53,937 nt of DNA from Coriobacteriia bacterium (GTDB lineage: Bacteria; Actinomycetota; Coriobacteriia; Anaerosomatales; Anaerosomataceae). Made by a program: the position numbers and the translations under genes. Position 1 is the stretch's first letter, and every line of letters begins with the position of its first letter. Where the stretch lies: NCBI GenBank assembly GCA_026416035.1, contig JAOAFY010000003.1, forward strand, positions 1 to 53,937, written 5' to 3'. The notes beneath the pieces are model-generated. The model made no database searches. It was not told where the DNA came from and worked only from the letters and a program-made list of their open reading frames with translations. Below, in pieces: positions 25,938 through 53,937 of the stretch.

Positions 25938-26453
25938 CTACAGCTCGCCGAGCCACTCCTGCAGACGCTCGGCCAAACGGAGCGCTACGCTCAGCACTCC
26001 ATCAGCAGGCTCCTCGTACCCGTCGAGCTGCCGCAGCCGTGCCTCTATGCGAGCGAGCGTCTGGACCGAGATCCTGCTCCGCACCTGGGCGACCGAGACT
26101 GCGCCAGCCCGGTTCTGGCTCGCATCAGCGGGGGACGCACCCCGCTTGCCGGCAGCAGCGCTCGCGGCCGACGCGGAGCCGACCTTGCTCCGCGTACGCG
26201 ATTGGGCACAGTCGGTCGAGCCGGCGTCGCACGAGCCATCCCGCAACCTGTCCTGCTCGCACAGCCTATCCCGCGTCGGCGACGCGGCGTCCGAGGGCGG
26301 GACCTGATCCCACCCCGACCGGGCCTCTGCCATTGCTGCGCCGCTTCCCGGCTGTCCAGAACCGGATCGCTGGCCGGACGCGAGCGCCGACGACGGCAGC
26401 CACACAAGAATGGCAGCAACAGCGAAAGCCGCTACCCTGGCGTACAAACGCAT
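25938..26453 (-). CDS. Hypothetical secreted protein
   Basis: Signal peptide ending ALA-S, Gly/Ser/Ala-rich body with RDRLCEQDRLRDGSC; GGGAGG RBS. Confidence 0.7.
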   Translation of the reverse strand: MRLYARVAAFAVAAILVWLPSSALASGQRSGSGQPGSGAAMAEARSGWDQVPPSDAASPTRDRLCEQDRLRDGSCDAGSTDCAQSRTRSKVGSASAASAAAGKRGASPADASQNRAGAVSVAQVRSRISVQTLARIEARLRQLDGYEEPADGVLSVALRLAERLQEWLGEL

Positions 26454-26546
26454 TCGTCTCACCTCCCGCATAGTGACCTTACGCCGACGAGAACGAAGGG
26501 CAGGTTGTCCGGGTGACGGCGCTCTCGTTAAGAGCGTGTTGCGACC

Positions 26547-27344
26547 TTACTGGCGGGATCCGGCCCCTTGCGTGCTCCCGTTCTGCCTGGGCTGCTCGTG
26601 AGCGCTGCTGGTGGCGTCGATCGACCCGCCGGGTCGGGGCGCCGAATCGCCCTGGCCGCCGTGTCCGGGAGAGGCCGGCGCCGACGGCTCCCGCGAACTG
26701 CCAGGAGCGCTGTCTGCAGGATCCGTGCGGTCATGCGGCTGCCGGGTCGCCGGACGCGACTGGTCGCCTTCAGGCTGTTCAGCGCCCGAGTCCGAACCGC
26801 TGCCGGTTCCGCTTCCAGGTGGAGTCCGCACCGGAGAGCCCTGGAGCCGGTCGAGCTCGCGTCGGATGATGTCGAAGGCCCGGTCGCTCTTCACACCGAA
26901 GCCTCCCGGCGGTTCCAGCCCCATCTCCCACAGCGCCTCCTCGAGCGCCGCCTCATCGAGTGCTTTGCCCGACACCCGGCGAAGCTCGACCGGCCGCCGC
27001 CGCTCGAACCGCGCTGCAAGGGGGTCCTCGACCGCCCCTGCGGGAAGGACCGACAGCGTCAACCGCTCCGCGGCTCGCTTCAGCCTGTAGCCTGGCTCCC
27101 CAGGAAGCGCCGTACCCGCGGCTGCACTCGCAGCCGCAGCAAAGAGCGATATCACGGCGAGCACGGTCGCAGCGCGTGCCGACAGCGTGCGATACGGCCT
27201 CCATCGCCTATCCCGGCGAGCCGCCGTGAGCACTGCCCGTCTGATCTCTCTGCGCGCCGATGGCGCCTGCTCGGTCAGCGCAGCGCGGAGCGCAGCCCTC
27301 AGAGCTTGCTCTGCGCGTTGCCCGATGTCGTCACGATGAGGCAT
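26547..27344 (-). CDS. Putative anti-sigma factor (TM + DUF5667-like domain + low-complexity tail)
   Basis: Overlaps the ECF sigma stop; one TM; ALPGEPGYRLKRAAERLTL resembles the DUF5667 ALPGDxLYxxKR motif. Confidence 0.75.
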   Translation of the reverse strand: MPHRDDIGQRAEQALRAALRAALTEQAPSARREIRRAVLTAARRDRRWRPYRTLSARAATVLAVISLFAAAASAAAGTALPGEPGYRLKRAAERLTLSVLPAGAVEDPLAARFERRRPVELRRVSGKALDEAALEEALWEMGLEPPGGFGVKSDRAFDIIRRELDRLQGSPVRTPPGSGTGSGSDSGAEQPEGDQSRPATRQPHDRTDPADSAPGSSREPSAPASPGHGGQGDSAPRPGGSIDATSSAHEQPRQNGSTQGAGSRQ

Positions 27345-27891
27345 CCTCGCCCTCCGACAGATATCGCGCAAGAGTCCGAACGGCTCGGTGCTGCATCGCT
27401 TTCACGGCACCCTCCGTCTTCCCGAGCGCGCTCGCCACATCAGCGACCGGCATGTCCCAGAAGAACCGCAGGACGACGACCGCTGCCTGTTCGTCCGTCA
27501 GCCGCCTCAGGGCCCGCCTCAGGTGCTCCGCATCGCACCGGGCCAACACCGTCTCATCGACCGCAACGATGTCCGCCACTTCGGCCGCATCGTCATCGCG
27601 CACGCGCTGCGGCTCGCGCGACGTGCGGCGGTACTCGTCGATGACAGCGTTCCGGGCTATGCGGAACAGCCAGGCAGCGAAGGGGATCCCTCGCGCGTCG
27701 TACGAAGGAAGCGCCTCCCACGCCCGCATGAACACGGTCGCAGTGAGGTCCTTCGCATCCTCGAAGTCGGCCACGCGCGCCCTGATGAACCCGTACACCC
27801 GGTCGTAGTGCGTCTCGTACAGCCGCTCGAACGCCCGGACGTCACCGCTTCGGGCCTTCCGGATCAGCCTCTCAACGTCCCGCTGCTGCAT
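27331..27891 (-). CDS. ECF RNA polymerase sigma factor
   Basis: AFERLYETHYDRVY, AKDLTATVFMRAW, FAAWLFRIARNAVID, LTDEQAAVVVLRF, EGAVKAMQHRA. Confidence 0.95.
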   Translation of the reverse strand: MQQRDVERLIRKARSGDVRAFERLYETHYDRVYGFIRARVADFEDAKDLTATVFMRAWEALPSYDARGIPFAAWLFRIARNAVIDEYRRTSREPQRVRDDDAAEVADIVAVDETVLARCDAEHLRRALRRLTDEQAAVVVLRFFWDMPVADVASALGKTEGAVKAMQHRAVRTLARYLSEGEDASS

Positions 27892-27966
27892 CGTGGCTCC
27901 ACAGACGGGCCACGCTGCCGCTACCAGCAGAAACGCGCCCGCCGCACATGAAGATACGCCTCGTCG

Positions 27967-27975
27967 TGCTAGAAT
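27967..27975 (+). promoter_or_regulatory. Extended -10 element (TGcTAGAAT) for the radical SAM gene
   Basis: TG-N-TAGAAT about 45 nt upstream of GTG 28020. Confidence 0.5.
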
Positions 27976-28019
27976 ATCCGCTCGAAGAACGCATCGCCGA
28001 CCCATCCGAGAGGACCATC

Positions 28020-29486
28020 GTGAGCCCTCGTGCCATTCGCCGCATCGCGTTGGTCACGCCACCGTACCACAGCGGCGTGGTGGAGACAGCAGGCTCCTGG
28101 CCGAACGCCGCGTTCGTCTACCTTGCCGGCTCACTGAGGGCCGCCGGTTACGAACCGGTCATCTACGACGCGATGACCGCCGACCACGACGCCGAGGCCA
28201 TCGCTCGCGAGCTGGAGCGGATTCGGCCCGACATGGTCGTCACGACCGCGTACACGTCGTCGTATCCGAAGGCGGTAGAGCTGCTCCGCCTGGCTAAGCA
28301 CACCGTACCGGGCGTAGTAACGGGCATCGGCGGCGTGCACGCGCACTTCATGTACGAAGAGGTGCTCTCTCGCGACGGCGATGCCGTCGACATCGTGTTC
28401 CGCGGAGAAGGCGAACGTACGCTGCCTGAGACGGTCGCCTGCCTCAACGCTGGCGATCGCCTGGACAAGGTGCCAGGTCTCGCCTTTCGCGACGAGAGCG
28501 GCTCGGTCGTGGCGACAGCGACGCGGCCCTTCATCGCAGACCTCGACTCCCTGCCGACCGCATGGGACCTCGTCGACTGGAGCCTGTACCGGTTCTACCC
28601 GATGCCCGACACGAAGCTCGCCATCATCTCCACGTCCAGGGGATGCGACCAAGCATGCACCTTCTGCAGCCAACAGGCGTTCTGGTGCAGGACGTGGCGC
28701 TCACGCTCCGCGGAGAACGTGGTGCAAGAGATGGAGATGCTGCGGGATCGGTTCGGGGTCGGCGTCGTGATGTTCTCCGACGAAACCCCGACGCTCGATC
28801 CCGTCCGGTGGCGCAGACTGCTCGACTTGCTGATCGAACGCGACGTCGGGCTGCACCTGCTCATGGAGACTCGGGTGGACGACATCCTGCGCGACCGCGA
28901 GCTCATGCCCCTGTATCACCAAGCAGGCGTGCGCCACATCTACGTTGGGGTGGAGCGAACAGACCAGGCGACTCTGGACCTGTTCAAGAAGAACACCGAG
29001 GTCTCCATGGGCAAGGAGGCCATAGACCTGATCAACTCGCACGACATGATCTCGGAGACCTCGCTCGTGCTCGGGCTGCCGGACGACACGCACGAAACCA
29101 TCGAGACGACCTTCCAACTCGCCCAGCACTACGACCCGGATCTGGCGTTCTTCCTCACGATCGCGCCGTGGCCGTACGCCGACATGTACAAGGACCTCGA
29201 GCCATACATCGTCAGCCACGACTACGAGGATTACAACCTCGTCGCGCCCGTCGTGAAGCCCAAGGCCATGACGACCGACGAGCTGATGAAGGAGATCATC
29301 GGCTGCTACCGACGCTTCTACATGGGCAAACTCAAGCGCATTCCCACGATGTCGCCGTTCAAACGCGAGTATTTCCTGGTCACCATGAAGCTCCTCATGG
29401 AGAACTCGTATCTCAGACAGTACATGGGCGGCCTCGGGGAGATGCCCGCAGAAGTCGCAGCGCTGTTTTCTGCTCGCAAGCCGTAG
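28020..29486 (+). CDS. Cobalamin-dependent (class B) radical SAM protein
   Basis: N-terminal B12-binding domain (GGVHAHF, VFRGEGE), SRGCDQACTFC CxxxCxxC, YVGVE; start GTG 28020. Confidence 0.92.
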   Translation: MSPRAIRRIALVTPPYHSGVVETAGSWPNAAFVYLAGSLRAAGYEPVIYDAMTADHDAEAIARELERIRPDMVVTTAYTSSYPKAVELLRLAKHTVPGVVTGIGGVHAHFMYEEVLSRDGDAVDIVFRGEGERTLPETVACLNAGDRLDKVPGLAFRDESGSVVATATRPFIADLDSLPTAWDLVDWSLYRFYPMPDTKLAIISTSRGCDQACTFCSQQAFWCRTWRSRSAENVVQEMEMLRDRFGVGVVMFSDETPTLDPVRWRRLLDLLIERDVGLHLLMETRVDDILRDRELMPLYHQAGVRHIYVGVERTDQATLDLFKKNTEVSMGKEAIDLINSHDMISETSLVLGLPDDTHETIETTFQLAQHYDPDLAFFLTIAPWPYADMYKDLEPYIVSHDYEDYNLVAPVVKPKAMTTDELMKEIIGCYRRFYMGKLKRIPTMSPFKREYFLVTMKLLMENSYLRQYMGGLGEMPAEVAALFSARKP

Positions 29487-30627: not shown

Positions 30628-30698
30628 GGCTCCTCACCAGATGAACGCGACCTCGTGCAGTACGAGGATACCGCGTTTCGACGCCGCTGGCACGCAGC

Positions 30699-31907
30699 CT
30701 AGGCGTGACGAAGCGGTTCCTGCGTCCAACCCGCGATGGACACGCACACCATCGAGGTGCCGATCACGGCAAGGGACGCAGGGACCCCGATCCGCTGCAC
30801 GAGGATGCCTGCCAGCACGTAGCCAGTCGCAAGCGCTGCCCCAGCGAGCATCCTCTGGACGGCGTAGATCCTGCCCAGGTGGCGTGCGGAAGCGTGCGCC
30901 TGCACCATGGCGCGCGCCGGCACGTAGAACCACATGTTCGCGAAGCCCACGAGAAAGACGAACGGCAGCGCCATGACCAGGCTCCTGGAGGTCGCCGTCG
31001 CAGCGATGAACACGCCAGCAGCAGCCAGGCCGATGATGTACTTGATGCCGGAACGCTCTGATCCGCTCTGACCTACAGCGACGCTTCCGACGAGCAAGCC
31101 GACCGTGATCGCAGCGTCGAGCGCCGCCAGCCCGACGGCTCGACCATCCACCGGTCCTGAGCCGAAGTGCTTGAGCGCAAGACCATGCATGGCCGTGTTC
31201 GCCGCAGCGATGGGCACTGCAGCGAGGGCATACGTCGCGGTAAGCGGTCGGATCAGCGCGTTGTCACGAATGCCCCGGAGGCCATCGGCGATCTGTGCGA
31301 GCATCGGCCCGGCCGCCGATGCCTCACCAGCCGCCCGTCGAGGTACCCGCATGCTGGCGATGACCAGCGCCGAGACCGCGAAGGTGGAGGCGTCGATGAA
31401 GAAGGCGTTCGACGCACCGAGCCTCGCGACCAGGCCCGCGCCAATGGCCAGACCAGCAATCTCCGACACGGACATCGTGGCTTGGTCCAGCGAGTTCGCT
31501 GCCACTAGGTCGTCTTCCGCGACGATCTCTGGGACGAGCGAGAATCGCGCCGGCTCGAAGAACAGCGAGGCAGTCGAAACGACGAAAGCAGCGGCGTAGA
31601 AGAACGCGATGTTGCGCTGCGCCAGGAAGGGGATCGCGCACACGAGCACAGCTCGGATGACGTCCGCTCCCACCATGACCCGCTTGCGGTCCGACCTGTC
31701 TACCGCAGCACCGATGGGAAGAGCGAACAGCACCGCCGGGAGGGTAGTGACCGCCAGCATCGCGCCGACGTGGACCACCGAACCTGTGAGCTTGTAGACG
31801 AGGATGCTTGCGCCGATCTGATGGATCTTGTCTCCGAGCACCGAGACAAGCTGAGCGATCCACAACGCTCGATACTGCCGGCTCCTGAGCGGCTGGATGA
31901 TGCGCAC
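30699..31907 (-). CDS. MFS transporter (DHA3/macrolide-efflux-like)
   Basis: About 12 TM helices, GAAVDRSDRKRVMV motif A, LVAANSL. Confidence 0.9.
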   Translation of the reverse strand: MRIIQPLRSRQYRALWIAQLVSVLGDKIHQIGASILVYKLTGSVVHVGAMLAVTTLPAVLFALPIGAAVDRSDRKRVMVGADVIRAVLVCAIPFLAQRNIAFFYAAAFVVSTASLFFEPARFSLVPEIVAEDDLVAANSLDQATMSVSEIAGLAIGAGLVARLGASNAFFIDASTFAVSALVIASMRVPRRAAGEASAAGPMLAQIADGLRGIRDNALIRPLTATYALAAVPIAAANTAMHGLALKHFGSGPVDGRAVGLAALDAAITVGLLVGSVAVGQSGSERSGIKYIIGLAAAGVFIAATATSRSLVMALPFVFLVGFANMWFYVPARAMVQAHASARHLGRIYAVQRMLAGAALATGYVLAGILVQRIGVPASLAVIGTSMVCVSIAGWTQEPLRHA

Positions 31908-43193: not shown

Positions 43194-44231
43194 ATGCACC
43201 GAGCACCGACGCACCTGCGCATCCTCGCGTGCATCGCCGCCTGCGCCTGCTTCGTGCTGAGTGCGGGTGCGGCAGCGGCGATCGCTCAGGACTACGTCTC
43301 CCGCGACGTCCTCGCGCCCGGGTCGGCGGTAGCGACCACCTCGGTGGGCGGCATGAGGCTCAGCGAGGCCAAGCAGGCGATCGAACGAGATCTCGCTGCC
43401 TCGTTCGGGCAGACCATGACCGTGATGGCCGGACAGCGCACCGTGCAGGTGCAGCCGTCACAGTTCCTGCGCGTAGACCTCGCCCGGACGTTGGGAAGCC
43501 TCGCGCAAGCCAAGGGCCGGACGCCTACGGCGCGCAGGCTGCTGGCTCAGGCCACCGGCGCACCGTACGGTACCAAGGTCCCTCCGCAGATCGCCGTCGA
43601 CCGCGCCGCACTCGATGCGTGGGTGGCTACCCTCGCGGCGTCGGTGGGGACCCCGGCTTCCGATGCCACACTCACGGTACAGGACCGTCAGCTCGTGGCG
43701 ATCCCTGAACGGGTAGGCTTCTCCATCGACCCTCGCAAGGCCGCAGACGCAGTGGCTGTGGCACTGGCACGCGGAGACGACAGCGTCCGTCTCCCCGTCA
43801 CCCGGATCGAGCCGAAGGTCACGCGCGAGGACCTCGGCATGGCGATCCTCGTCAGACGGGCCGACCGTCGGCTCTTCCTCTACGAAGACGGCAGGCTCGT
43901 GAAGGTCTATCGCGTTGCGGTCGGCGCGCCTGGCTTCCCGACGCCTCGAGGTCGCTGGACGATCGTCCGAAAACGCTACATGCCGACGTGGGGAAACCCG
44001 GGGTCGGACTGGGCGAAGGACATGCCTCGGTTCATCCCGCCCGGACCGAACAACCCCCTCGGCACGCGCGCTTTGGACCTGAGCGCGCCGGGAATCCGCA
44101 TCCACGGCACGAACAAGGACTACTCGATCGGTCAAGCGGCCTCGCACGGTTGCATGCGGATGCACCGCTGGGACATCGAAGACCTCTACGACCGAGTGCC
44201 GGTCGGCACACCCGTGTTCATCATCGACTGA
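43194..44231 (+). CDS. L,D-transpeptidase family protein with N-terminal PG-binding region
   Basis: Signal peptide; RRLFLYE..YRVAVG..TPRG, NPLGTRAL, IRIHGT, SHGCMRM. Confidence 0.93.
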   Translation: MHRAPTHLRILACIAACACFVLSAGAAAAIAQDYVSRDVLAPGSAVATTSVGGMRLSEAKQAIERDLAASFGQTMTVMAGQRTVQVQPSQFLRVDLARTLGSLAQAKGRTPTARRLLAQATGAPYGTKVPPQIAVDRAALDAWVATLAASVGTPASDATLTVQDRQLVAIPERVGFSIDPRKAADAVAVALARGDDSVRLPVTRIEPKVTREDLGMAILVRRADRRLFLYEDGRLVKVYRVAVGAPGFPTPRGRWTIVRKRYMPTWGNPGSDWAKDMPRFIPPGPNNPLGTRALDLSAPGIRIHGTNKDYSIGQAASHGCMRMHRWDIEDLYDRVPVGTPVFIID

Positions 44232-44475
44232 GATCGCCCGGGACGCGATCCTCGATCTCGACGCGACCCGTCCACGCGATGCCGGACGCCGAAAGGACCG
44301 ACTCCGTACGCTCCGCGTCTTCCAGCGCCGTCCTGACGGCGATGCCGCACAGCGCCCCCAGAGACTTCGGGGTAGGCACGGCCGCAACGGGAATCCCCGC
44401 ATCGGCAAGCGCCTTCTCGGCAGCCAGAGCATCGTGGGTCGTCCCGAACCCATACACGACGAAGCGGAGCATCAC
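44221..44475 (-). CDS. DUF3343 protein (putative S/Se carrier)
   Basis: F.TTHDALAAEK.L...I....VPTP..L...CGIAVR; start overlaps the desulfurase stop. Confidence 0.85.
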   Translation of the reverse strand: MMLRFVVYGFGTTHDALAAEKALADAGIPVAAVPTPKSLGALCGIAVRTALEDAERTESVLSASGIAWTGRVEIEDRVPGDLSR

Positions 44476-45626
44476 GCCTGGCACACCTCGCGCACGGCCT
44501 CGACCGCCCGCTCCACGTCGTCTTCGGTCACACCACGGCCCACGCTGAAACGGACCGCGCCCGTCTCAAGCGTTCCAGCCGAAGCGTGTGCCGCTGGCGC
44601 GCAGTGCAGTCCTGAGCGGACTGCGATGCCGAAGCGCGAATCGAGTTCGTATGCGATCCGGTCCGGTTCGACCGACTCGTGGATGATGCTGACGACCGGG
44701 GCCCGCTCTTCGCCGGGAGCCGGTCCGAGCACGGCAATCCCGGGGACTTCGAGCAGTCCGTCCACGAGCCTCTGCACGAGACGCCGCTCGTGCGCCATGA
44801 TCGCATCCAGCTCGCGCGCGAGCACTCCCACGCCTGCCGCGAGTCCCGCGATGGCGGGGACGGGAGGGGTGCCTGCTTCGTAGCGATCCGGGCGTGCGTC
44901 AGGCATGGCAGGCGAGACCGACTCCCCTCCGCTTCCGCCCTGGACCAGCTCGGGCAGCTCAAGACCCGGTGCAAGGTACACCACGCCGACGCCCTGGGGT
45001 CCCAGCAGCCCCTTGTGGCCGGACGCCACGTAGACGTCCGCGCCGAGAGCTCGCACGTCGACACGCAGGTGTCCGGCCGCCTGGGCTCCGTCGACCACGA
45101 GCACGGCACCGTGCTCGTGGGCGATGTCGGCCAGGTCGGCCACGGGCTGGATCGCGCCGGTGACGTTCGACGCGTGCTGGCACACGACCGCCTTGGTCTT
45201 GCCTGCCGCGATGATCGCCTCGGCCGCATCGAGGTCCACGCGCCCAGCGCCATCGACGGGCATGCGCACCACCTCCACGCCGTGTGCTTCGAGCACCGCC
45301 AGGGGCCGCATCACTGCGTTGTGTTCCACGCTGGAGATGACGACGCGATCACCGGCGCCAAGCAGGCCCTTGAGCGCCATGTTCAGGCCGAAGGTGCATC
45401 CCGGCACGAACAACAGGTCGCGAGCATCGCCCGCTCCGAGGAACGACGCCACTGCGCTTCGGGCCTCCAAGACGAGCCGCGCCGCCTCCAGTGCCAGCCG
45501 GTGCGCACTGCGATGGGGGTTGCCGCCCGCTGGTCCGAGCGCCCGCTTAACCGCCGCGAACACCTCGGGCGGCTTCGGCCACGACGTCGCTGCGTGGTCG
45601 AGGTAGATGATTCCATCGTGTGGCAT
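44472..45626 (-). CDS. Class V PLP enzyme, cysteine desulfurase/selenocysteine lyase-like
   Basis: YLDHAATSWPKP, GNPHRS, EHNAVMRPL, HASNVTG, DGAQAAG, GHKGLLGPQG (PLP Lys), YEAGT, RSGLHCAP (catalytic Cys). Confidence 0.92.
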   Translation of the reverse strand: MPHDGIIYLDHAATSWPKPPEVFAAVKRALGPAGGNPHRSAHRLALEAARLVLEARSAVASFLGAGDARDLLFVPGCTFGLNMALKGLLGAGDRVVISSVEHNAVMRPLAVLEAHGVEVVRMPVDGAGRVDLDAAEAIIAAGKTKAVVCQHASNVTGAIQPVADLADIAHEHGAVLVVDGAQAAGHLRVDVRALGADVYVASGHKGLLGPQGVGVVYLAPGLELPELVQGGSGGESVSPAMPDARPDRYEAGTPPVPAIAGLAAGVGVLARELDAIMAHERRLVQRLVDGLLEVPGIAVLGPAPGEERAPVVSIIHESVEPDRIAYELDSRFGIAVRSGLHCAPAAHASAGTLETGAVRFSVGRGVTEDDVERAVEAVREVCQA

Positions 45627-45629
45627 CCG

Positions 45630-46109
45630 CTATCCGTGCCCCCCGCCGGCCATCATCTCGACCGCGTGCTCCAACTGGTCCGCGACGATAGCGAATGCCT
45701 GCCGAACCGCTTTCTCGCTGCCAGGGAAGTTGATGATGAGCGTCTTGCCCCGCTGGGCCGCGACGCCGCGGGACAGCATCGCGCGCCTCGTCGTTGCAAG
45801 GCTCTCGGCGCGGATCGTCTCCGCGATTCCCGGCACTGCCCGCTGCGCGAGCGACATCGTCACCTCCGGGCACACGTCCCGTGGCCCAAGGCCGGTGCCG
45901 CCCGTCGAGAACAGGACGTCCACCTCGTCCACGTCGCACATCTCCGTGATGGCGAGCGCGATCGCCTCCGCTTCGTCCGGCACGACGTGGTATGCAGCCA
46001 CGAGCCATCCGCGGCTCTCCGCGAGCTCGATCAGCGCCTTGCCGGACGTGTCTTCAGCTTCGCCGGCTGCACGCGTGTCAGAACACGTGAGCACCCCGAT
46101 CCTGAGCAC
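45630..46109 (-). CDS. mogA: Molybdopterin adenylyltransferase MogA/MoaB
   Basis: LTCSD, EDTSG, STGGTGLGPRDVCPE, LSRGVA, NFPGS. Confidence 0.92.
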   Translation of the reverse strand: MLRIGVLTCSDTRAAGEAEDTSGKALIELAESRGWLVAAYHVVPDEAEAIALAITEMCDVDEVDVLFSTGGTGLGPRDVCPEVTMSLAQRAVPGIAETIRAESLATTRRAMLSRGVAAQRGKTLIINFPGSEKAVRQAFAIVADQLEHAVEMMAGGGHG

Positions 46110-46583
46110 CTAGGCCTCCCCAAGACGTTCGACCGCAACCGTGTCACCGACGCGCACCGTACCACCACGCCTGACCACTGCGAAGATGCCCTCCCGGGGC
46201 ATCACGCAGTCGCCTGCCTGGTAGAAGATCGCGCACTTCGTGTGGCAGACCTTCCCGATCTGGCTCACTTCGAGCACCGCGTCCTCGCCGATCCGGAGAA
46301 CCGTTCCCACCGGAAGTGAAACCAGGTCGATGCCCTCAGTCGTGATGTTCTCCGCAAAGTCGCCGGCATCCACGTCCAAGCCTTTGGCCCGCATGTAGTC
46401 GATCGACTCCCGGGCAAGCAGGCTCACTTGGCGGTGCCAGTCGCCTGCGTGCGCATCGCCTTCGAAGCCGTGGCCTTCACGCAGCACGCCTTCTTCTCCC
46501 CGCGACTTACGGACCGTCTTGCGTTCCGAGAGGTTGACTGAGACGACGGTCCCTCTGGGGAGCGCATGTGCCGTCTCGCTCAC
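46110..46583 (-). CDS. Stand-alone MOSC-domain protein
   Basis: [49 protein letters not shown]; GTG start overlaps the moaC stop. Confidence 0.92.
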
Positions 46584-47065
46584 CTCGACTCCTCTCTGAC
46601 GAAGCGGCCGGATGCGCCGCCTTCCTTCTCCAGAAGCATGACGTCCGTGACGACCATGCTGCGGTCGACGGCCTTGCACATGTCGTACACCGTGAGCCCC
46701 GCGACGGCGGCCGCCGTCAGCGCTTCCATCTCGACGCCTGTCTTGCCGTCCGTCTCGGCGGTCGCAGTGATGACGATGGCAGAGTACTCGGGCTCGAGGT
46801 CGACTGCGACGTGCGTCAGCGACAGCGGGTGGCACATCGGGATGAGGGCCGCAGTCTGCTTGGCCGCCATGATGCCCGCTATCCTCGCCGTGGCCAGCAC
46901 GTCGCCCTTCGGAGCCGTGCCGCCGAGGATCATCTCCAGGGTCGAGGGCTCCATCAACACCTTCGCCTGTGCGACTGCCCGTCTGTGCGTCACCGGCTTG
47001 CCGGACACATCCACCATGCGCGCCGCTCCGCGCTCGTCGATGTGCGTGAGCTTCTTGTCTTCCAT
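46580..47065 (-). CDS. moaC: Cyclic pyranopterin monophosphate synthase MoaC
   Basis: [47 protein letters not shown]. Confidence 0.96.
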
Positions 47066-47066
47066 C

Positions 47067-48092
47067 TCACCCTCCGATCTGCGACATGCGCCGGATGGTG
47101 CCGACGCGCATGTTGTGGTGCTCTGGCTTCGCAGCCAGCGCACGCTCGATCAGCGCCCGCACTGCGTCGTCGTCGCCGGTACGCAGAACGCTGCGGGCAT
47201 CCAGCTCGTCGTCCGAGAACAGACAGGTGCGAAGCCGGCCGTCCGCCGTCAGACGCAGACGGTTGCACTCACCGCAGAAGTGGTGCGAGAGCGGCGAGAT
47301 GACGCCGAGCGTGCCCGCCGCGCCGTCGAACCGATAGTACCGCGCAGGCCCCCATCCGCCGGGCGCCTCCTCGCGGGAGACCGCCTTCAGCTCGCCGAAT
47401 CCCGCTGCAGCACCCTCTGCGGCGAGGCGTGCAAGGATCTCGTCCGAGGGAACCTCGTCTTCGATCGTCCAGCCGTCTGCCTCCGCGCCGCCGCACACGG
47501 TCCCATCGTCCGCACCGCCGACGGGCATGTATTCGATGAACCGCACGTGGACGGGCCGCTCGAACGTCATCCGAGCGAAAGCCGCGAGGTCCTGATGCAA
47601 GCGCCGCACGACCACGACGTTGAGCTTCACCGGATCCATGCCGGCATCGAACGCCGCGTCAAGCCCTGCGAGCACCTCCGACAGCCGGCCCCCTCGGGTG
47701 ATGCGGGCGAAGACGTCGGGGTCGAGGGTGTCGAGCGAGACGTTCACCCGTCGGAGCCCCGCAGCGGCGAGTTCGTGCGCGTAGCGCGCAAGGAGCGTGC
47801 CGTTGGTCGTGAGCGCAATCGCCTCGATGCCAGTGACCTCCAGCAGGCGCCGCACGTGGCCGACCAAACCTCGCCTGACGAGCGGCTCGCCCCCCGTCAG
47901 CCTGATCTTCGAGATTCCCTGCCCTGCCGCAACGGCAGCGAACCGCTCGATCTCCTCGTACGTGAGCAGCTCGTCGTGAGGCTTCCAGGCGACGCCGCCT
48001 TCCGGCATGCAGTACACGCACCGCAGGTTGCACCGGTCCGTGACCGAGATGCGCAGGTAGTCGATCCGTCTGCCGAAGGAGTCAGTCGCCAT
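47067..48092 (-). CDS. moaA: GTP 3',8-cyclase MoaA
   Basis: [50 protein letters not shown]-terminal MSQIGG. Confidence 0.97.
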
Positions 48093-48612
48093 CTCGGACT
48101 CCTCGGAGGAACTCGCGCTCGACGAAGTCGGCGAGAGCGACGCGGTCGCCGAGCGAGAAGCGCGGCACGCCTGGCGCGTCGATGCCTTCATCGTCGGTCA
48201 CGATAGCGACGAGCTCGGACGGGGCGCTGATGAGCTCGCGCGAACGCGCGCGCCGCACGACCTCGATACGCACGCGCGCCGTGCGCTTGAAGCCCTCGGT
48301 CACGAGGAGGTCGCATCCTGCACGCTCGGCCTCCGCCGCGATATCGTCGAGCGAGAGCTCCTCCTCGAGGCGCCGAATCGTCACCAGCTGCGAGGGCGAC
48401 GCGACCATCACGACGCGCGCCCCGGCGCGTGCGTGACGCCACGAGTCCTTGCCCGCCACGTCGATGTCGACTTCGTGTGCGTGATGCTTGCATGTGGCGA
48501 CCACGTACCCGCGCGCAGCGAGCTCGGCGACCACGCCTTCGAGCACGGTGGTCTTGCCGACATCGCTCTTGCCGACGATCGACACGACCGGTATGCCTGG
48601 TGCGCTGCTCAC
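48082..48612 (-). CDS. mobB: Molybdopterin-guanine dinucleotide biosynthesis protein MobB
   Basis: GKSDVGKTT, KHHAHEVDID..GKDSWRH, LVTEGFK. Confidence 0.92.
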   Translation of the reverse strand: MSSAPGIPVVSIVGKSDVGKTTVLEGVVAELAARGYVVATCKHHAHEVDIDVAGKDSWRHARAGARVVMVASPSQLVTIRRLEEELSLDDIAAEAERAGCDLLVTEGFKRTARVRIEVVRRARSRELISAPSELVAIVTDDEGIDAPGVPRFSLGDRVALADFVEREFLRGVRDGD

Positions 48613-48613
48613 C

Positions 48614-48835
48614 TCAGAAGCACCCGAGGTCGCAGTTGACGACCTTCGCGCCCACCATGTCCGCGGCAGCCCCGGCGACCTTGTACGGCACGCCGAAGTC
48701 CTCTGCCAGCTTGCGCAGCACCGGGCAGGTGATGCGACCGTCGGCGGCCTTCTCGCGCACCGCAGCTTCAAGCTCCGGCGTCACCCGTTCCGCCCAGCGC
48801 GGATCGATCTGCTTCGCTCCTTTGTCGGTGCTCAT
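48614..48835 (-). CDS. Small conserved Cys-motif protein ending in CDLGCF
   Basis: 73 aa, ITCP...LAE..GV....AG..AD..G.KV..CDLGCF; ATG overlaps the moeA stop (ATGA). Confidence 0.85.
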   Translation of the reverse strand: MSTDKGAKQIDPRWAERVTPELEAAVREKAADGRITCPVLRKLAEDFGVPYKVAGAAADMVGAKVVNCDLGCF

Positions 48836-50061
48836 GGCGTCCCTTCCTCCATGTCGAGACGGATGCACTCCACCACGCTTCCCTGCTCGAATCGCGACTC
48901 GCCCTCCGGAAGCACCAGCAGTGCGTTCGCACGATGCATCGAGGTGAGCATCGCGGACGACTGCGCGCCAGACAGGCGCGCCACGTACCCGCCCTTCCCG
49001 TCCCGTTCGACCCGGGCACGCAGGAAGTACCGGCGGTCCGGCTTCTTGTGCACGTCGTGGGCGAGCGTCACAGGATGGCGGGGGCGGTCGAGCGCCGTGT
49101 GTCCAGCCATCTTCCGCACGACCGGCCGCACGAACAGTTCGAAGCCCACCATCGTCGAGGTGGGATTCCCCGGCAGGCCGAAGAACGGCGTCGTGCCGAT
49201 GCGCCCGTGAGTCTGCGGTGCACCGGGACGCATCGCCACCTTCCAGAAGTCCATCTCGCCCAGGCGCTCGAGCACGCCCTTGACGACGTCGTAGTCGCCC
49301 ATGCTCACGCCGCCGGTGGTCACCATCAGGTCGAACTCCGGCGCCCGGGACAACAGCGCCTCGGTCGCGGCCGCATCATCGCGCGCGACGCCGAGCACGT
49401 GCGGCTCGCCGCCCGCAGCGATCACCTGCGCCGACAGCGAGTACGAGTTCGAGTTGCGGATCTTGCCCGGCCCGGGCTTCTCACCCACGTCTACCAGCTC
49501 GTCGCCGGTGGCGACGATTGCAACGCGCGGCTTCCGGTACACGAGCGGCTCGGAGCAGCCGACCGACGCCAGCAGCCCGACGGCGGCTGGCCCCACGACC
49601 TCGCCAGCGGACAGCACGACCTCGCCTGCGCGAACGTCCTCGCCCTTGCGCCTCACGTTCTCGCCCGGCCGCACCGCAGCGAAGATGACCGCCGTCGCTC
49701 CCCCGTCCTCCGCCCGCGTCCGCTCGACCATCACGACCGCATCCGCGCCGTCCGGGATCGGGGCGCCCGTCATGATGCGCGCTGCCTGACCAGGGCCGAT
49801 CTCACGCGAGGGGAAGACCCCTGCCGGCACGTGCTCGACCACCTCGAGCCGGACGGGCGTCGCCTCGCTCGCGTCGTGCACGTCAGCGGCTCGAACCGCG
49901 TAACCATCCATGGCCGAGTTGTCGAACGGCGCGACGTCGATGTCCGACACCACGTTCTCGGCAAGCACGCGACCGAGCGCCTCGACCAGCCCGACGCGTT
50001 CGGTCCCGAGGGGCACGATGCCGGCGAGCACGCGCTCGCGAGCCTCATCGACCGTGATCAT
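48832..50061 (-). CDS. moeA: Molybdopterin molybdo/tungsto-transferase MoeA
   Basis: PFDNSAMDGYA, RIMTGAPIP, TGDEL, NSNS, TTGGVSMGDYD, PGNP, SSAML; ATG 50061 overlaps the mobA-fdhD stop. Confidence 0.96.
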   Translation of the reverse strand: MITVDEARERVLAGIVPLGTERVGLVEALGRVLAENVVSDIDVAPFDNSAMDGYAVRAADVHDASEATPVRLEVVEHVPAGVFPSREIGPGQAARIMTGAPIPDGADAVVMVERTRAEDGGATAVIFAAVRPGENVRRKGEDVRAGEVVLSAGEVVGPAAVGLLASVGCSEPLVYRKPRVAIVATGDELVDVGEKPGPGKIRNSNSYSLSAQVIAAGGEPHVLGVARDDAAATEALLSRAPEFDLMVTTGGVSMGDYDVVKGVLERLGEMDFWKVAMRPGAPQTHGRIGTTPFFGLPGNPTSTMVGFELFVRPVVRKMAGHTALDRPRHPVTLAHDVHKKPDRRYFLRARVERDGKGGYVARLSGAQSSAMLTSMHRANALLVLPEGESRFEQGSVVECIRLDMEEGTP

Positions 50062-51464
50062 CTGGCATCCCGCCCTTCGACGACGCGATACGGGTTCGTG
50101 TACACGACCAACTTGCCTCCCCGCGCGTAGCCCACGAGTGTGAGCCCCACCGCTTCCGCGACGTCGGCGGCGAGGTCGGTCACCGCCGTGCGCGACACCA
50201 CCACGGGCACCTTCGCTTTTGCCGCCTTCACCGCCATCTCGTAGGAGATGCGCCCGGTCGTGAGCAGCACCGCGCCTTCGGTGCTCACGCGGTCGAGCCA
50301 CGCCCTGCCGAGCACCTTGTCGACCGCGTTGTGACGCCCCACGTCCTCTCGCACCAGCAGGACCCGCCCCTCTCGCGCGAGTGCGCACGCATGCACGCCG
50401 CCCGTGTCGCGATACAGCGCTGCTCCACGCGCCATCTGCCCGACGAGGTCGTACAGCTCGTCAGCAGTCACCACGGTACCGTCTGTCACCGCCTCCAGCC
50501 CGAGGGTGTGGCCGAGCGACGCGAAGGTCACCCCCTTGCCGCAGCCGGCGGTGATGTAGCGGCGCCGGTACACGAGGTCCTCGGGGACCGCTTCCGCGCT
50601 GCGGACGTAGACGAGTCCTCGCTTGTGATCGACGTCGATGCCCTGCAAAGCGTCCCGAACAGCGAGCAGCCCCTCGGAGACGAGGAATCCGACCGCCAGC
50701 TCCTCCAAATCCGCAGGCGTGGCCTGCACGGTCGCGATCTCGGCATCATTCATGTTGATCGTGACGGCCCGCTCGGCAGGCATGCGGCGGCCGCGTCGCG
50801 TCCCCACCTCGATCACGGCCGCGGGCGAGGTCGCCTGCAGCTCCTCGTGAGCTGACTCGCGCACCTCAGCGAGGTCCTCCGGCGTGTTCACATTCACGAA
50901 GCTCAGCAGGCCCGGGTCGACGGCGCGCAGCGTCTCGGCGTCGACCTCCCGAACGGCGAGGGCCGGGAACATGGCAACGAGGCGCCGCCGACCAGTCTCG
51001 AGCACGCGGCGGGCGTGCGGGAGGCAATCACGGTGGTACAGGGCGAGCAGCGGCTCCACGCCCTTCTCGGTGCGCGGGACCACGACCTGTGCGCCCTCGC
51101 GCGCGTCCCACAGGGCGCGCACGACCTCAGGGTTGAGCCACGGCATGTCGGCGGCGAGCGCGAGCACCCACTCGTCGGGAGCGTTCTTCAAGGCGGTGGC
51201 AAGCCCGCCGAGCGGTCCCTGGTACGCGACCTCGTCGATCCACACCTCCACGCCGGCAGGCAGCCCCGCGTCTGCCAGAGCCTCGGGACGGTTCGTGACG
51301 ACGGCGACGCGCTCGCACACCGCCGCAGCGGCTTCGGCGACCCGTGAGATCAGCGGCTCGCCGTCCACGAGCAGCAGCGTCTTGTCGACCCCCATGCGCA
51401 TCGAACGACCGCCGGCCAGCACTGCCGCGGTGGCCGGGATCCTCGCTTCTGACGCTCCCATCAT
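50058..51464 (-). CDS. MobA-FdhD fusion (Moco guanylyltransferase + formate dehydrogenase sulfurtransferase)
   Basis: N-half LAGGRSMRMGVDK, GPLGG, ADMP, EPLLALY, NVNTPED; C-half TPADLEELAVGFL.SEG, TAGCG, TGGVHA, EDVGRHNAVDKVLG, TGRISYEM; one continuous frame. Confidence 0.92.
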   Translation of the reverse strand: MMGASEARIPATAAVLAGGRSMRMGVDKTLLLVDGEPLISRVAEAAAAVCERVAVVTNRPEALADAGLPAGVEVWIDEVAYQGPLGGLATALKNAPDEWVLALAADMPWLNPEVVRALWDAREGAQVVVPRTEKGVEPLLALYHRDCLPHARRVLETGRRRLVAMFPALAVREVDAETLRAVDPGLLSFVNVNTPEDLAEVRESAHEELQATSPAAVIEVGTRRGRRMPAERAVTINMNDAEIATVQATPADLEELAVGFLVSEGLLAVRDALQGIDVDHKRGLVYVRSAEAVPEDLVYRRRYITAGCGKGVTFASLGHTLGLEAVTDGTVVTADELYDLVGQMARGAALYRDTGGVHACALAREGRVLLVREDVGRHNAVDKVLGRAWLDRVSTEGAVLLTTGRISYEMAVKAAKAKVPVVVSRTAVTDLAADVAEAVGLTLVGYARGGKLVVYTNPYRVVEGRDAR

Positions 51465-52570
51465 CCCGATGCCCCTTCGTGCGACGACGGCTCTTCCGCG
51501 ACGCGGACCGCCGTGGCCTTGAAGACTGCCAGCACCTCAGCACCCGGCGCAAGCCTGAGCTCCCGCGCCGCTGCCCTGGACACGCGCGCTGCAATCCGGA
51601 CGCCGGCGCACTCAAGGATCGCCCGGAACGTCACCCCCGCTGGCTCCAGCTCGCGCACTACGCAGGCAAGCCTGTTGCGCGCCGAGCTCGCAGGGACGTT
51701 CGCGCCCGCCTCGAACAGCACGACGTCTTCGGGACGGACCCCGAGGCGCACTCGCGCGCCCGGCTCGACCGGAGCGACGGCGAAGAGATCGACGCCCTCG
51801 CACACGATGCGCGCCACGCCTTCTTCGACCTCCGCGACGACCCCCGCCACTGGCGCCTCCAGCCCGAGGAAGCCGGCGGCCCACGGATCGCCGGGCACGA
51901 GGAACACGTCGTCCGCCGGCCCGCTCGCGACGATGCGTCCCTCTCGCATCACGGCGACGTCGTCGGCGACGAGCGCGGCTTCGTCGTGGTCGTGCGTGAC
52001 CCACAGCACCGTCATGCCGTCCTCGTGCAGCAGCCGCGCGAAGTCCTGCGCAAGACGCAGCTTGACGACCGGGTCGAGGGACGCGAGCGGTTCGTCCAGC
52101 AGCAGCACGCGCGGCCGCACGGCGAGCGCCCGAGCCAGCGCAACCCGCTGCGCCTCCCCACCCGAGAGCGCAAGCGCCGAGCGGTCTTCCCATCCGCCAA
52201 GGCCGACCCGTTCGAGCGCCTCGGCCACGCGGCATCGCCAATCCGCGGTCGGAAGCCCCCTGAGCGCGAGCCCGTATCCGACGTTCTCGCCGACGGTACC
52301 CTTGAACAGCCAGGGGCGCTGGAACGCAGCCGCGATCTGCAGACGGGCCTTCCGATCGCCCGCGCTGACCTCGCGGCCGTCGAACACGATGCGGCCCGCA
52401 TCAGGCCGCTCCAGGAGCCCGAGCACCGCGAGGAGCGTCGACTTGCCTGCGCCGGAGGGGCCGAGCAGCGCCACCGTCCGGCCGGCTTCGAGCGCAAGCC
52501 GGTCGACTGCGAGCACTTCTCGCCGCCGGTAGGACTTCCGGATGCCTTGCGCTTCGAGCACCGCGCTCAT
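51461..52570 (-). CDS. tupC: Tungstate/molybdate ABC transporter ATPase with TOBE domains
   Basis: GPSGAGKST, LSGGEAQR, LLLDEP, VTHD, C-terminal TOBE; ATG 52570 overlaps the permease stop. Confidence 0.88.
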   Translation of the reverse strand: MSAVLEAQGIRKSYRRREVLAVDRLALEAGRTVALLGPSGAGKSTLLAVLGLLERPDAGRIVFDGREVSAGDRKARLQIAAAFQRPWLFKGTVGENVGYGLALRGLPTADWRCRVAEALERVGLGGWEDRSALALSGGEAQRVALARALAVRPRVLLLDEPLASLDPVVKLRLAQDFARLLHEDGMTVLWVTHDHDEAALVADDVAVMREGRIVASGPADDVFLVPGDPWAAGFLGLEAPVAGVVAEVEEGVARIVCEGVDLFAVAPVEPGARVRLGVRPEDVVLFEAGANVPASSARNRLACVVRELEPAGVTFRAILECAGVRIAARVSRAAARELRLAPGAEVLAVFKATAVRVAEEPSSHEGASG

Positions 52571-53274
52571 GATCGCTCGAACCTCTCGGCAGAACGCTGG
52601 ACGCGCGCCAGCACAGCGTTGACCGCTACGACCAGGGCGAGCAGCACCGCCGAGAGCGCGAGCGCCGGTCCGTAACGGCCCATGCGCGTGTACTGCACGA
52701 TCGCCGTGGTCATCACGCGAGTCGAACCCTCGAGGTTGCCGCCGACCATCATGACGGCTCCGACCTCGGAGATCACCGCGCCGAAGCCCGCAGCGACGGC
52801 GGCGACCACACCCATGCGCGCCTCCTTGAGGACCAAGACCGCCTCGTGCCATCGCGATGCCCCGAGCGAACGGGCCTGCAGCCGCAGCTCGACCGGAACC
52901 GATGCGACCGCCGTGGCCGTGACGGCCGCCACCACCGGCATGGCGATGACCGCCTGGGCGATGACCATCGCCGGACGCGTGTAGAGCAAGCCGAGCGATC
53001 CGAGGGGTCCACGGCGCGACAGAAGCATCGCCACCACCAGGCCGACCACCACCGGCGGCAGACCCATCCCCGCGTTCGCCAGAACCAGGAAGACGTTCCG
53101 GGCGGCCCCGCGACGCATGCCCAGGTACAGACCAGCAGGGACACCGAGCACGAGCGCGACCGCGACCGCCGCGCCCGACACGCGAAGCGAGGTCGCCACT
53201 ACCTCCCACACGTCGACGCCGCCCGATGCAAGCGCCTGCACGCCCTCGCCGATCGCATCCAAGAACAGGTTCAC
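52567..53274 (-). CDS. tupB: Tungstate ABC transporter permease
   Basis: SLRVSG, MGLPPVVVGL, LSRRGPLG, LLYT..AMVIAQ, FGAVISEVGAVMMVGGN, TRVMTTAI. Confidence 0.9.
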   Translation of the reverse strand: MNLFLDAIGEGVQALASGGVDVWEVVATSLRVSGAAVAVALVLGVPAGLYLGMRRGAARNVFLVLANAGMGLPPVVVGLVVAMLLSRRGPLGSLGLLYTRPAMVIAQAVIAMPVVAAVTATAVASVPVELRLQARSLGASRWHEAVLVLKEARMGVVAAVAAGFGAVISEVGAVMMVGGNLEGSTRVMTTAIVQYTRMGRYGPALALSAVLLALVVAVNAVLARVQRSAERFERS

Positions 53275-53937
53275 GACCCGCCCCCTTCGGCATCCGGCAC
53301 GAACAGCGGTGCGCCGAATCGGTCGACTCCGAACCTGCCGATGAGCCGCTGGCCTTGCGGGCCGCATATCCACTCGACGAAGTCCCGTGCCCCGCGCTCG
53401 TTGCGCGCCCCCGCGACGGGGATGACCCCGTACTGGTTTCGCAGGGCCGGATCGCCCGAGAAGAGCACCGCCAGGTCGAGGGCGTCGCGCATCGCGGCGA
53501 ACGTCGCTTCGTCCGTCAGGGCGTACGCCTGCTTCTCTGACGCGATCTTGAGCGTCTCGCCCATGCCCTGTCCCGTGATGAGGTACCAGTCCCCCGCAGG
53601 CTCGCCCCCAGCCGCGGCCCACACCGCCCGCTCCTTCGCGTGCGTCCCTGAGCCGTCGCCCCGTGAGACGAACGCCAAGCGTGCGTCGCGGATGCGCTTG
53701 AACGCTTCTGCAGCCGACCGCGCCTGGCGGGTCCTGGCCGGGTCGTCTTGAGGGCCGACGATCACGAAGCGGTTGTAGCAGACCTGGCGTCGCTCCAGCC
53801 CGTGACCGTCTGCGACGAACGCGGCCTCCTGGTCCGGCGCGTGCACCAGCAAGACGTCGGCGTCCTTCTGACGGCCGAGGCGAAGCGCCTCGCCCGTACC
53901 GACGGCGACCACCTCGACCGACCACGCAGGATACGCC
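53271..53937 (-). CDS. tupA: Tungstate-binding protein TupA, 5' truncated by window edge
   Basis: VAVGTGEAL..DADVLLVHAP, YNRFVIVGP..DPA, FVSRGDGSGTH.KE, GQGMGETL, Y.LTDEATF, L.NQYGV. Confidence 0.9.
   Translation of the reverse strand, partial: AYPAWSVEVVAVGTGEALRLGRQKDADVLLVHAPDQEAAFVADGHGLERRQVCYNRFVIVGPQDDPARTRQARSAAEAFKRIRDARLAFVSRGDGSGTHAKERAVWAAAGGEPAGDWYLITGQGMGETLKIASEKQAYALTDEATFAAMRDALDLAVLFSGDPALRNQYGVIPVAGARNERGARDFVEWICGPQGQRLIGRFGVDRFGAPLFVPDAEGGGS

Follow-up and report, generated by a model that had tools for sequence, protein, structure and literature searches.

How the dithiolene of the tungsten or molybdenum cofactor might be made when the operon dedicated to that cofactor lacks molybdopterin (MPT) synthase is the question raised by a 53,937-bp contig (G+C ~67%) of a Coriobacteriia bacterium, called here the window, by which is meant the whole stretch of DNA analysed. 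Its minus strand carries thirteen closely packed genes for metal uptake and cofactor synthesis, amongst which those for the conversion of cyclic pyranopterin monophosphate (cPMP) to MPT were not found. MPT synthase (MoaD/MoaE) is usually regarded as a universal step of Mo/W cofactor synthesis. The best candidate for the missing enzyme of many anaerobes without MoaE is a small stand-alone MOSC protein with three nearly invariant cysteines, encoded in the window between moaC and mogA. From its sequence and gene context we suggest that this protein may perform the job of MoaE, taking cPMP to the dithiolene-bearing MPT, and we put the probability of this at about 0.45.

A pathway with one missing step

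The steps encoded by the operon are uptake (tupABC), formation of cPMP (moaA, moaC), adenylylation (mogA), metal insertion (moeA), guanylylation (mobA, mobB) and sulfuration (fdhD). Thus MoaA, MoaC, MogA/MoaB, MoeA, MobA and MobB are all present, with matches to the moaA, moaC, mobB, molyb_syn and fdhD models that lie above the respective cutoffs. MoaD, MoaE and MoeB were found neither in the 54-kb window, by Pfam on the other genes and by six-frame phmmer searches with validated E. coli seeds, nor within ±10 kb in six syntenic loci of relatives, which carry the same thirteen genes in the same order on contigs of up to 2.04 Mb and whose MOSC proteins are 77-86% identical to that of the window. 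A moaD or moaE gene upstream of tupA and beyond the window was considered and rejected, as the upstream regions of the relatives carry none; and since the operon of the relatives starts at tupA the MPT synthase step seems to be missing from the whole transcription unit. The initial annotation, made on the window alone, had named cPMP to MPT as the sole step lacking, and this holds for the complete operon including the start seen in relatives. Nor was any Mo/W enzyme found in the window, the remaining genes being of housekeeping, cell-wall, chemotaxis and cytochrome types.

The same gap accompanies this type of MOSC gene widely. Eighty loci at species level (1.24 Mb), fetched from GTDB genomes by two motifs of the MOSC subfamily and annotated with iterated hidden Markov models built from the window proteins, span at least seven phylum-level groups as judged by record titles (Firmicutes, Coriobacteriia and other Actinobacteria, Chloroflexi, Desulfobacterota/Geobacter, Nitrospirota, Planctomycetes, Deferribacterales and Bacteroidaceae). 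In none of the 80 was MoaE detected within ±10 kb of MOSC, either with the E. coli seed or in a re-scan with a Bacillus seed, and the same was so for 120 further metagenome loci (0.66 Mb). The E. coli MoaE query does detect the MoaE proteins of S. aureus, M. tuberculosis, human and Aquifex, and as a positive control the same pipeline recovers both MoaE and MoaD in a Bacillus mycoides locus.

In seven of the 80 loci (Desulfotomaculum, Pelotomaculum, Peptococcaceae and three Geobacteraceae) a MoaD ending in GG and a MoeB stand beside moaA-(moaC)-MOSC without MoaE, and in two of the seven the cluster starts with an aldehyde:ferredoxin oxidoreductase gene. Given that MoaD next to MoaE is described as the conserved core of the pathway's gene neighbourhoods (PMC1779556), the occurrence of MoaD and MoeB beside MOSC with no MoaE deserves attention, and it speaks for MoaE having been replaced and not the complete MoaD/MoaE/MoeB system. 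The alternative dithiolene synthesis proposed in the initial annotation is therefore supported in so far as MOSC would substitute for MoaE, and weakened by these seven loci in so far as all three proteins were thought to be replaced. As to their detailed layout, the Desulfotomaculum and Peptococcaceae clusters (L018 4373-11705; L041 3-4921), which have no MoaE, comprise an aldehyde:ferredoxin oxidoreductase, a beta-grasp protein, MoaD(GG), an ABC transporter, moaA, moaC, MOSC and a MobB-MoeB fusion, the beta-grasp protein having no C-terminal GG and ending PPGTPGPYRV... instead.

A whole chromosome could be inspected for Acetoanaerobium noterae, whose PLSDB record NZ_CP154629.1 is labelled a plasmid and is a 2.63-Mb circular chromosome that begins dnaA-dnaN-recF-gyrB. 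It carries mogA-moaA-MOSC (L208, L209; MOSC 59% identical), and no MoaE was found on it by tblastn with the E. coli protein (E<=0.1) or the Bacillus protein (E<=10). Across PLSDB the MoaE tblastn searches matched 92-96 records from 37 genera, Acetoanaerobium, Clostridium and Cetobacterium not being among them. Likewise no MoaE was found on the Clostridium botulinum plasmid NZ_CP063818.1 (L210, L211), where a modA-ABC-DUF364-mogA-moaA-moaC cluster lies ~8 kb from a MOSC gene of the subfamily.

Published genomes tell a similar story, and MoaE has been reported missing for acetogens, Dehalobacter, G. metallireducens and Thermotoga (PMC5039349, PMC4751268, PMC2700814, PMC4148951). G. metallireducens, which respires nitrate, has no moaE and keeps moaD, moeB and two mosC genes (PMC2700814); Dehalobacter is without moaD and moaE and the authors propose MOSC as a substitute (PMC4751268); and T. 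thermarum, like T. lettingae, has neither moaD nor moaE (PMC4148951). The statement in the initial annotation that there are MoaE-less anaerobes for which MOSC proteins have been suggested as substitutes agrees with these four papers, and its remark that no biochemical proof was known agrees with our literature search, which turned up no biochemical or experimental test of MOSC as an MPT synthase. Both the hole in the pathway and the MOSC suggestion are already printed as remarks in genome papers. Added here are the definition of the three-cysteine subfamily, its moaA/moaC-MOSC-mogA placement, its fusions, the count of 0 MoaE in 200 loci, the association with MoaD/MoeB without MoaE, one MoaE-less carrier chromosome, and the demotion of a small cysteine protein (Cys73, see below) from the proposed sulfur path.

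A three-cysteine MOSC subfamily

The MOSC protein of the window scores 52 bits against PF03473 (cutoff 22.7), and 149 of 150 subfamily representatives also match that family. An exhaustive HMMER search yields 3037 representatives at E<=1e-3, or 217 if the limit is set at E<=1e-30, of which the best 150 serve for the motif and fusion figures given here. Three motifs are kept in at least 90% of these 150, namely a 15-residue motif, GDFAENI and QIGKxCHxxCAIYxxxGDCIMPREG, the last of which holds all three cysteines. These are C113, C117 and C126, the C-x3-C-x8-C motif that had caught the eye in the window protein, and they too are conserved in at least 90% of the representatives. By its sequence the MOSC gene falls into a subfamily of its own, marked by three nearly invariant cysteines.

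No member of the subfamily has a solved structure, and a profile search of the PDB comes no closer to YiiM than E = 0.003. YiiM aligns to just a part of the Cys-rich motif, where C113 matches the YiiM cysteine and C117 has no counterpart. The AlphaFold2 model of the MOSC protein (predicted local distance difference test, pLDDT, 89) is a MOSC beta-barrel with a template modelling (TM) score of ~0.7 to YuaD, YiiM and mARC1. MOSC_N was not detected in the 157-residue protein, which matches PF03473 alone. With MoaE (PF02391) no phmmer or Pfam similarity was found, and the modelled fold is that of MOSC and not of MoaE; the MOSC protein can thus be only a functional analogue of MoaE and not a member of its family.

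The position of MOSC in the order of the pathway, between moaC and mogA, extends well beyond the window. Directly upstream of MOSC stands moaC in 23 and moaA in 17 of the 80 loci, and mogA is directly downstream in 32, while other molybdenum cofactor (Moco) genes are present in 66. Fusions of the domain tell of the same company: amongst the best 150 representatives MOSC is joined to MogA/MoaB (20), MoaC (7), XdhC (5), MobB (2) and FdhD (1), and in none of them to MoaE or ThiS. All of the fusion partners are pterin-handling proteins, and the MoaC-MOSC and MOSC-MogA fusions reproduce the gene order of the window; the placement seen at first in one contig is conserved in many phyla and fixed in these fusion proteins. 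In three Desulfobacterales loci (L049, L052, L064) MOSC adjoins nifS-nifU and a small helix-turn-helix (HTH) gene, followed in L064 by fdhD, an adjacency which would link the MOSC gene to sulfur or Fe-S mobilisation. The desulfurase gene in these loci was also considered as one of the TIGR01977 type and this was rejected, it being a nifS paired with nifU.

A proposed role in cPMP to MPT conversion

In the mechanism that we favour, the MOSC protein encoded between moaC and mogA would bind the pterin intermediate and replace MoaE in the step from cPMP to MPT. For lineages with MoaD(GG) and MoeB beside MOSC the sulfur donor would be the MoaD thiocarboxylate. In the clade of the window the sulfur may come from the class-V cysteine desulfurase of the operon, possibly through the small DUF3343 protein encoded next to it, or else from MoaD and MoeB, if these are encoded elsewhere. 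Persulfides could be carried on the three invariant cysteines, or these could ligate an Fe-S cluster that has an open site; the latter, after the fashion of the three-Cys [4Fe-4S] sulfurtransferases of the TtuA/Ncs6 type, is speculation by analogy, and the nifS-nifU genes beside MOSC in the three Desulfobacterales loci fit either mode. A bolder version makes the subfamily a hitherto unrecognised, non-homologous MPT synthase, possibly Fe-S or persulfide dependent, which would provide the Moco/Wco dithiolene for the many anaerobes without MoaE and in the window's clade would dispense with MoaD and MoeB and draw its sulfur directly from the desulfurase via DUF3343; this we consider quite unlikely.

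A number of points count against the MOSC protein acting in the place of MoaE. The MOSC proteins that have been characterised either bind mature Moco, as do YiiM, YcbX and mARC, or take part in its sulfuration, as does ABA3/MOCOS, and we know of no chemical precedent for dithiolene formation by a MOSC protein. The MOSC fold is unrelated to MoaE, the operon is without a thiocarboxylate system, and its pairing of a desulfurase with MOSC mirrors the eukaryotic Moco sulfurase. The absence of MoaD and MoaE in the clade covers 54 kb and the ±10 kb of the relatives, out of a genome of ~2 Mb. Of the 80 MOSC loci 14, gut Coriobacteriia among them, are without nearby Moco genes, on the C. botulinum plasmid the MOSC gene adjoins genes for an 8-oxoguanine deaminase and a nucleobase transporter, and the fusions to XdhC and FdhD indicate late, post-insertion steps. 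Further, G. sulfurreducens has both mosC and moaE, so the two are not strictly exclusive (PMC2700814), and some Moco-using Coriobacteriia are without any MOSC protein (PMC6147048, Table S1).

If the MOSC protein does take the place of MoaE, this would be a non-orthologous replacement within one of the oldest cofactor pathways, and the scoring of metagenomes for Moco capability would change, in that genomes without MoaE can now seem incomplete. It would also be of relevance to the engineering of formate dehydrogenase and aldehyde oxidoreductase in acetogens for CO2/CO conversion. The operon offers a compact test bed, with thirteen coupled genes, riboswitch regulation and a sulfur-mobilising enzyme of its own.

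Sulfur or selenium, and early or late

What the desulfurase and the DUF3343 protein supply bears on the relay alone, and can be combined with an early as well as with a late role of MOSC. The desulfurase has the lysine motif for pyridoxal phosphate (PLP), SGHK, and its catalytic Cys342 in SGLHCAP, and on sequence grounds is a generic class-V desulfurase with PLP lysine and catalytic cysteine. It is possible, and we hold this tentatively, that the pair traffics selenium, from selenocysteine (Sec) to selenophosphate or Sec for a Sec-containing W-formate dehydrogenase, or to a labile Se ligand, or that it provides the sulfur for sulfido insertion by FdhD, being co-regulated with cofactor synthesis in either case. 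The two top models for the lyase are TIGR01977 and the selenocysteine lyase SclA, both falling short of their curated cutoffs, the first only just. The small protein matches PF11823, annotated as a Se/S carrier, the Cys of its LGxLCG motif is conserved in relatives, and comparative genomics has tied DUF3343 to selenium metabolism and trafficking (PMC9312934). A LysR regulator encoded upstream of the operon in relatives (L001 1355-2242, which would lie just past the right end of the window) passes NF040786, the model for selenium metabolism-associated LysR proteins (286 vs 250 bits). Selenium-linked genes thus stand on both sides of the cofactor operon.

Taken together the desulfurase, DUF3343 and the neighbouring LysR look like a selenium/sulfur trafficking module. 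Amongst the loci selected by MOSC the Se_S_carrier accompanies MOSC only in the Coriobacteriia clade of the window, which fits a selenium function and argues against the carrier as a partner of the MOSC subfamily in general. Against a selenium function stand the translational coupling of desulfurase and DUF3343 to mogA and MOSC, and the lack of any selD, selA or selB gene seen in the window or flanks; specificity for sulfur versus selenium is not a property readable from sequence. The relay drawn in the initial annotation, from desulfurase to DUF3343 and a small CDLGCF protein, and from there to MOSC and cPMP, is weakened accordingly. The desulfurase and DUF3343 may serve selenium or terminal-sulfido delivery instead, a part for the CDLGCF protein (Cys73) is unlikely, and what is kept is the operon's own desulfurase as a candidate donor.

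The MOSC protein itself could act late, as a cofactor-binding sulfurase or chaperone that together with the desulfurase, by which it would be fed persulfide, makes up a split Moco sulfurase (NifS-like plus MOSC). Its task would then be to insert or shield the terminal sulfido ligand, or to pass the cofactor to apo-enzymes, alongside FdhD, with MoaD, MoaE and MoeB encoded elsewhere. We regard this as a serious rival, though less probable than the role in place of MoaE. A class-V desulfurase and MOSC in one operon do recall the domain pair of ABA3/MOCOS, and sulfuration is in keeping with the original MOSC prediction by Anantharaman and Aravind 2002 (as cited in PMC1779556, PMC4751268). Moreover the XdhC and FdhD fusions are to chaperones of the sulfurated cofactor, several loci have MOSC adjoining fdhD or nifS-nifU, the canonical MOSC cysteine aligns with that of YiiM, and G. 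sulfurreducens retains both MoaE and mosC (PMC2700814). A late role nevertheless leaves unexplained the absence of MoaE near the subfamily and its reported absence from carrier genomes (PMC5039349, PMC2700814, PMC4751268). Nor does it sit well with the most conserved partners, moaA/moaC upstream and mogA downstream, which are those of early and middle steps, with the absence of MOSC_N, the partner of MOSC in MOCOS and mARC, or with the presence of FdhD, which already supplies sulfido insertion for formate dehydrogenase.

That the MOSC protein is a small Mo/W enzyme in its own right, such as a YiiM-like reductase of N-hydroxylated bases merely co-expressed with the operon, is very improbable. 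In favour of it are the resemblance of the modelled structure to YiiM and YuaD, the placing of MOSC proteins among the molybdoenzymes by Peng et al. (PMC6147048), the deaminase and transporter genes beside the Clostridium plasmid homologue, and the 14 orphan loci. Against it, the protein is a bare 145-residue barrel without the extra domains used by YiiM, YcbX and mARC, its conserved placement and fusions are with biosynthetic enzymes and not with redox partners, and the subfamily-specific cysteines, notably C117, are missing in YiiM.

Cys73, a small cysteine protein of cofactor operons

The gene between moeA and mobB encodes the protein we call Cys73, whose true start is MSTDKG, whose ending is C-x-L-G-C-F and in which C37, C68 and C72 are invariant. 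No family match was found in Pfam or NCBIfam, the Pfam matches at E<=10 being scattered and weak ones to HTH families only. The AlphaFold2 model (pLDDT 84) is small, helical and winged-HTH-like, and the PDB yielded nothing below E = 1 in a structure search. That Cys73 might be the FeS or unknown domain fused to MobB in PRK14494/14495 was considered and rejected, there being no match at E<=0.01.

Homologues were sought by scanning JGI metagenomes with a hand-made degenerate DNA pattern for the C-terminal motif, which returned 120 loci (L087-L206), 116 of them with a homologue. Of these 116, 48 lie directly upstream of hemX(CcsA-like)-hemA-hemC, 39 are in Moco operons and 24 are elsewhere, and the remaining five loci are too short to tell. 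Members of the family are 56-73 residues long, and some homologues consist of two repeats in tandem. The Cys73 gene of Moorella mulderi comes first after a Moco riboswitch (L038 5272-5414). Heading as it does both haem and Moco operons, the family is likelier to provide a regulator or sensor, or a general metal or Fe-S factor, than a dedicated sulfur carrier; Cys73 itself probably acts as a regulator or sensor, or binds metal or Fe-S as a factor common to cofactor operons, and a place for it in a sulfur relay is improbable. The proposal that it carries the dithiolene sulfur, made when it had been seen in the one Moco operon, thus loses its ground, the family not being specific to Moco. The family carries no annotation and seems to be widespread in gene clusters for cofactors, and is of interest in itself.

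Operon layout, start and regulation

The thirteen genes are listed in Table 1, with identities from Pfam and NCBIfam. Their spacing is -11 to +3 nt, and a coordinate check gave no internal stop codons, which together with the family matches confirms the tightly overlapped cofactor run described at the outset. The order of transcription is tupA-tupB-tupC-mobA/fdhD-moeA-Cys73-mobB-moaA-moaC-MOSC-mogA-desulfurase-DUF3343, and no promoter-like or terminator-like sites were seen on the minus strand between the thirteen genes. The moaC stop codon is overlapped by the GTG start of MOSC, and that of the desulfurase by the start of DUF3343, in both cases as GTGA. The operon thus reads as one translationally coupled unit for a tungsten (or molybdenum) bis-pyranopterin guanine dinucleotide (bis-PGD) cofactor. 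Its gene set is ordinary except for MOSC, Cys73 and the desulfurase/DUF3343 pair. For the tupA product the TupA model is the sole match, at 171-187 bits against a cutoff of 400, and TupB scores 139 against 320.

Table 1. Genes of the cofactor operon at 44221-53937 of the window, in order of transcription
Product	Coordinates	Strand	Supporting matches and remarks
TupA-like tungstate/molybdate-binding protein, 5' end truncated by the window end	53271..53937	-	top NCBIfam match NF041772 TupA, 171 bits (below the 400-bit cutoff)
TupB ABC permease	52567..53274	-	L001 orthologue matches ABC_perm1 and TupB models; 4-nt overlap with each neighbour
TupC ABC ATPase with TOBE domain	51461..52570	-	orthologues: Pfam ABC_tran and TOBE; top NCBIfam WtpC, sub-cutoff
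MobA (guanylyltransferase)-FdhD (cofactor sulfurtransferase) fusion	50058..51464	-	PF12804 residues 13-164; PF02634 residues 230-461; TIGR00129 fdhD 185 vs 141 bits
MoeA metal insertase	48832..50061	-	MoeA_N, MoCF_biosynth and MoeA_C domains
Cys73, 73-aa tri-Cys protein ending NCDLGCF, unannotated family	48614..48835	-	no Pfam/NCBIfam match
MobB	48082..48612	-	PF03205; TIGR00176 129 vs 76 bits
MoaA radical-SAM GTP 3',8-cyclase	47067..48092	-	TIGR02666 357 vs 284 bits
MoaC cPMP synthase	46580..47065	-	NF006870 228 vs 162 bits
MOSC protein, stand-alone, 157 aa, three-Cys subfamily	46110..46583	-	PF03473; 195 bits to the MOSC half of NF011069 MoaC/MOSC fusion model
MogA/MoaB MPT adenylyltransferase	45630..46109	-	PF00994; TIGR00177 119 vs 85 bits
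Class-V PLP cysteine desulfurase/selenocysteine-lyase-like	44472..45626	-	PF00266; TIGR01977 365.4 vs 377 bits; SclA 314 vs 525 bits
Se_S_carrier (DUF3343) small protein, one conserved Cys (LGALCG)	44221..44475	-	PF11823 60.7 vs 25 bits

The initial annotation cautioned that the start of the operon is not within the window, a caveat which the syntenic relatives resolve. There the operon begins at tupA, and upstream of it come a Moco riboswitch, the LysR regulator and then divergent fur and cbiM genes. The riboswitch (RF01055) is directly 5' of tupA (L001 2302-2431; L004 2132-2260), the window stopping short of the element, and it is without the P3 hairpin. A P3-less variant of the Moco riboswitch was tied to the tungsten cofactor by Regulski et al. 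(PMC2408646), and so the tungsten assignment of the transporter and operon is supported.

A near-identical sequence is present in one public run, a hot-springs metagenome, and the nearest relatives of its proteins bear the annotation uncultured Coriobacteriia or Anaerosomatales. Cultured Anaerosomatales have genomes of 1.8-2.1 Mb with a G+C of 66-68%, and use a molybdopterin formate dehydrogenase in the reductive glycine pathway (PMC9686372). The host is most likely an uncultured hot-spring member of the Coriobacteriia, Anaerosomatales-like, with the cofactor used in formate dehydrogenase.

Other features of the window

Apart from the operon, the window has on its minus strand at 17251-19401 a gene for a 716-residue multihaem cytochrome c with an N-terminus of the NapC/NirT type, cytochrome c3/c7 repeats and a double zinc ribbon. 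It adjoins DUF2085 and DUF6812 genes and a tRNA-Pro (17082-17158), and open reading frames (ORFs) antisense to it and within it have a third-position G+C (GC3) of 0.92-0.95. Between the gene for an EamA transporter and that for a B12-binding radical-SAM protein (27789-29486) lies a stretch of ~2.3 kb (25500-27800) in which no ORF shows a clear coding bias; the longest one, at 26547-27401 on the minus strand, is without a Pfam match. At 30643-30737 (minus strand) ARAGORN calls a 95-nt tRNA-Pro(agg) which Rfam does not report at the gathering score, possibly a false call or an unusual tRNA.

Comparison with known systems

Like the eukaryotic sulfurases ABA3 and MOCOS, in which a NifS-like domain is followed by a C-terminal MOSC domain, the operon of the window pairs a class-V PLP desulfurase with MOSC, and the MOSC cysteine is conserved. 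Unlike them it has separate genes with mogA between the two, and no MOSC_N. The target of ABA3 is the terminal sulfido ligand of Mo-MPT for the xanthine-oxidase family, whereas the operon is one for a bis-PGD cofactor and has FdhD. With YiiM, YcbX, mARC and the B. subtilis YuaD the window protein shares the MOSC fold (Foldseek TM 0.68-0.71 to 1ORU, 5YHH and 1O65) and an alignable canonical cysteine. In contrast, the similarity in sequence is marginal (profile E = 0.003 to 0.7), and those proteins have extra domains, are encoded outside moa operons and are without the full C-x3-C-x8-C and GDAHAGxWHRQ motifs.

For the sulfuration of bis-molybdopterin guanine dinucleotide by FdhD and IscS in E. 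coli the counterparts in the operon would be FdhD, here fused to MobA, and a dedicated desulfurase, and the same flow of sulfur is plausible, although the desulfurase is TIGR01977/SclA-like and not an IscS, and a DUF3343 carrier is added. The SclA, DUF3343 and selenium-associated LysR set has all three of its elements in the window's clade, the LysR just past the window, but here they are found within and around a W/Mo cofactor operon and not beside selD.

The Geobacter mosC genes and the MOSC genes of the Dehalobacter moa clusters belong to the same subfamily, share the mobA/B-moaA-MOSC order (L036, L013, L019 vs GSU3147-3145, PMC2700814) and pose the same puzzle of a missing MoaE. They differ from the window in having no desulfurase/DUF3343 pair, and the Geobacteraceae retain MoaD and MoeB. 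Set against the MPT synthase of E. coli, a MoaD2-MoaE2 complex served by MoeB, the window differs in that MoaE is an alpha/beta hammerhead whereas MOSC is a beta-barrel with three conserved cysteines and no sequence similarity to it, and that the window operon is without MoaD and MoeB. Yet gene order and the missing step imply for MOSC the same position in the pathway, between cPMP and MPT, and in seven loci MOSC stands with MoaD(GG) and MoeB just as MoaE normally does.

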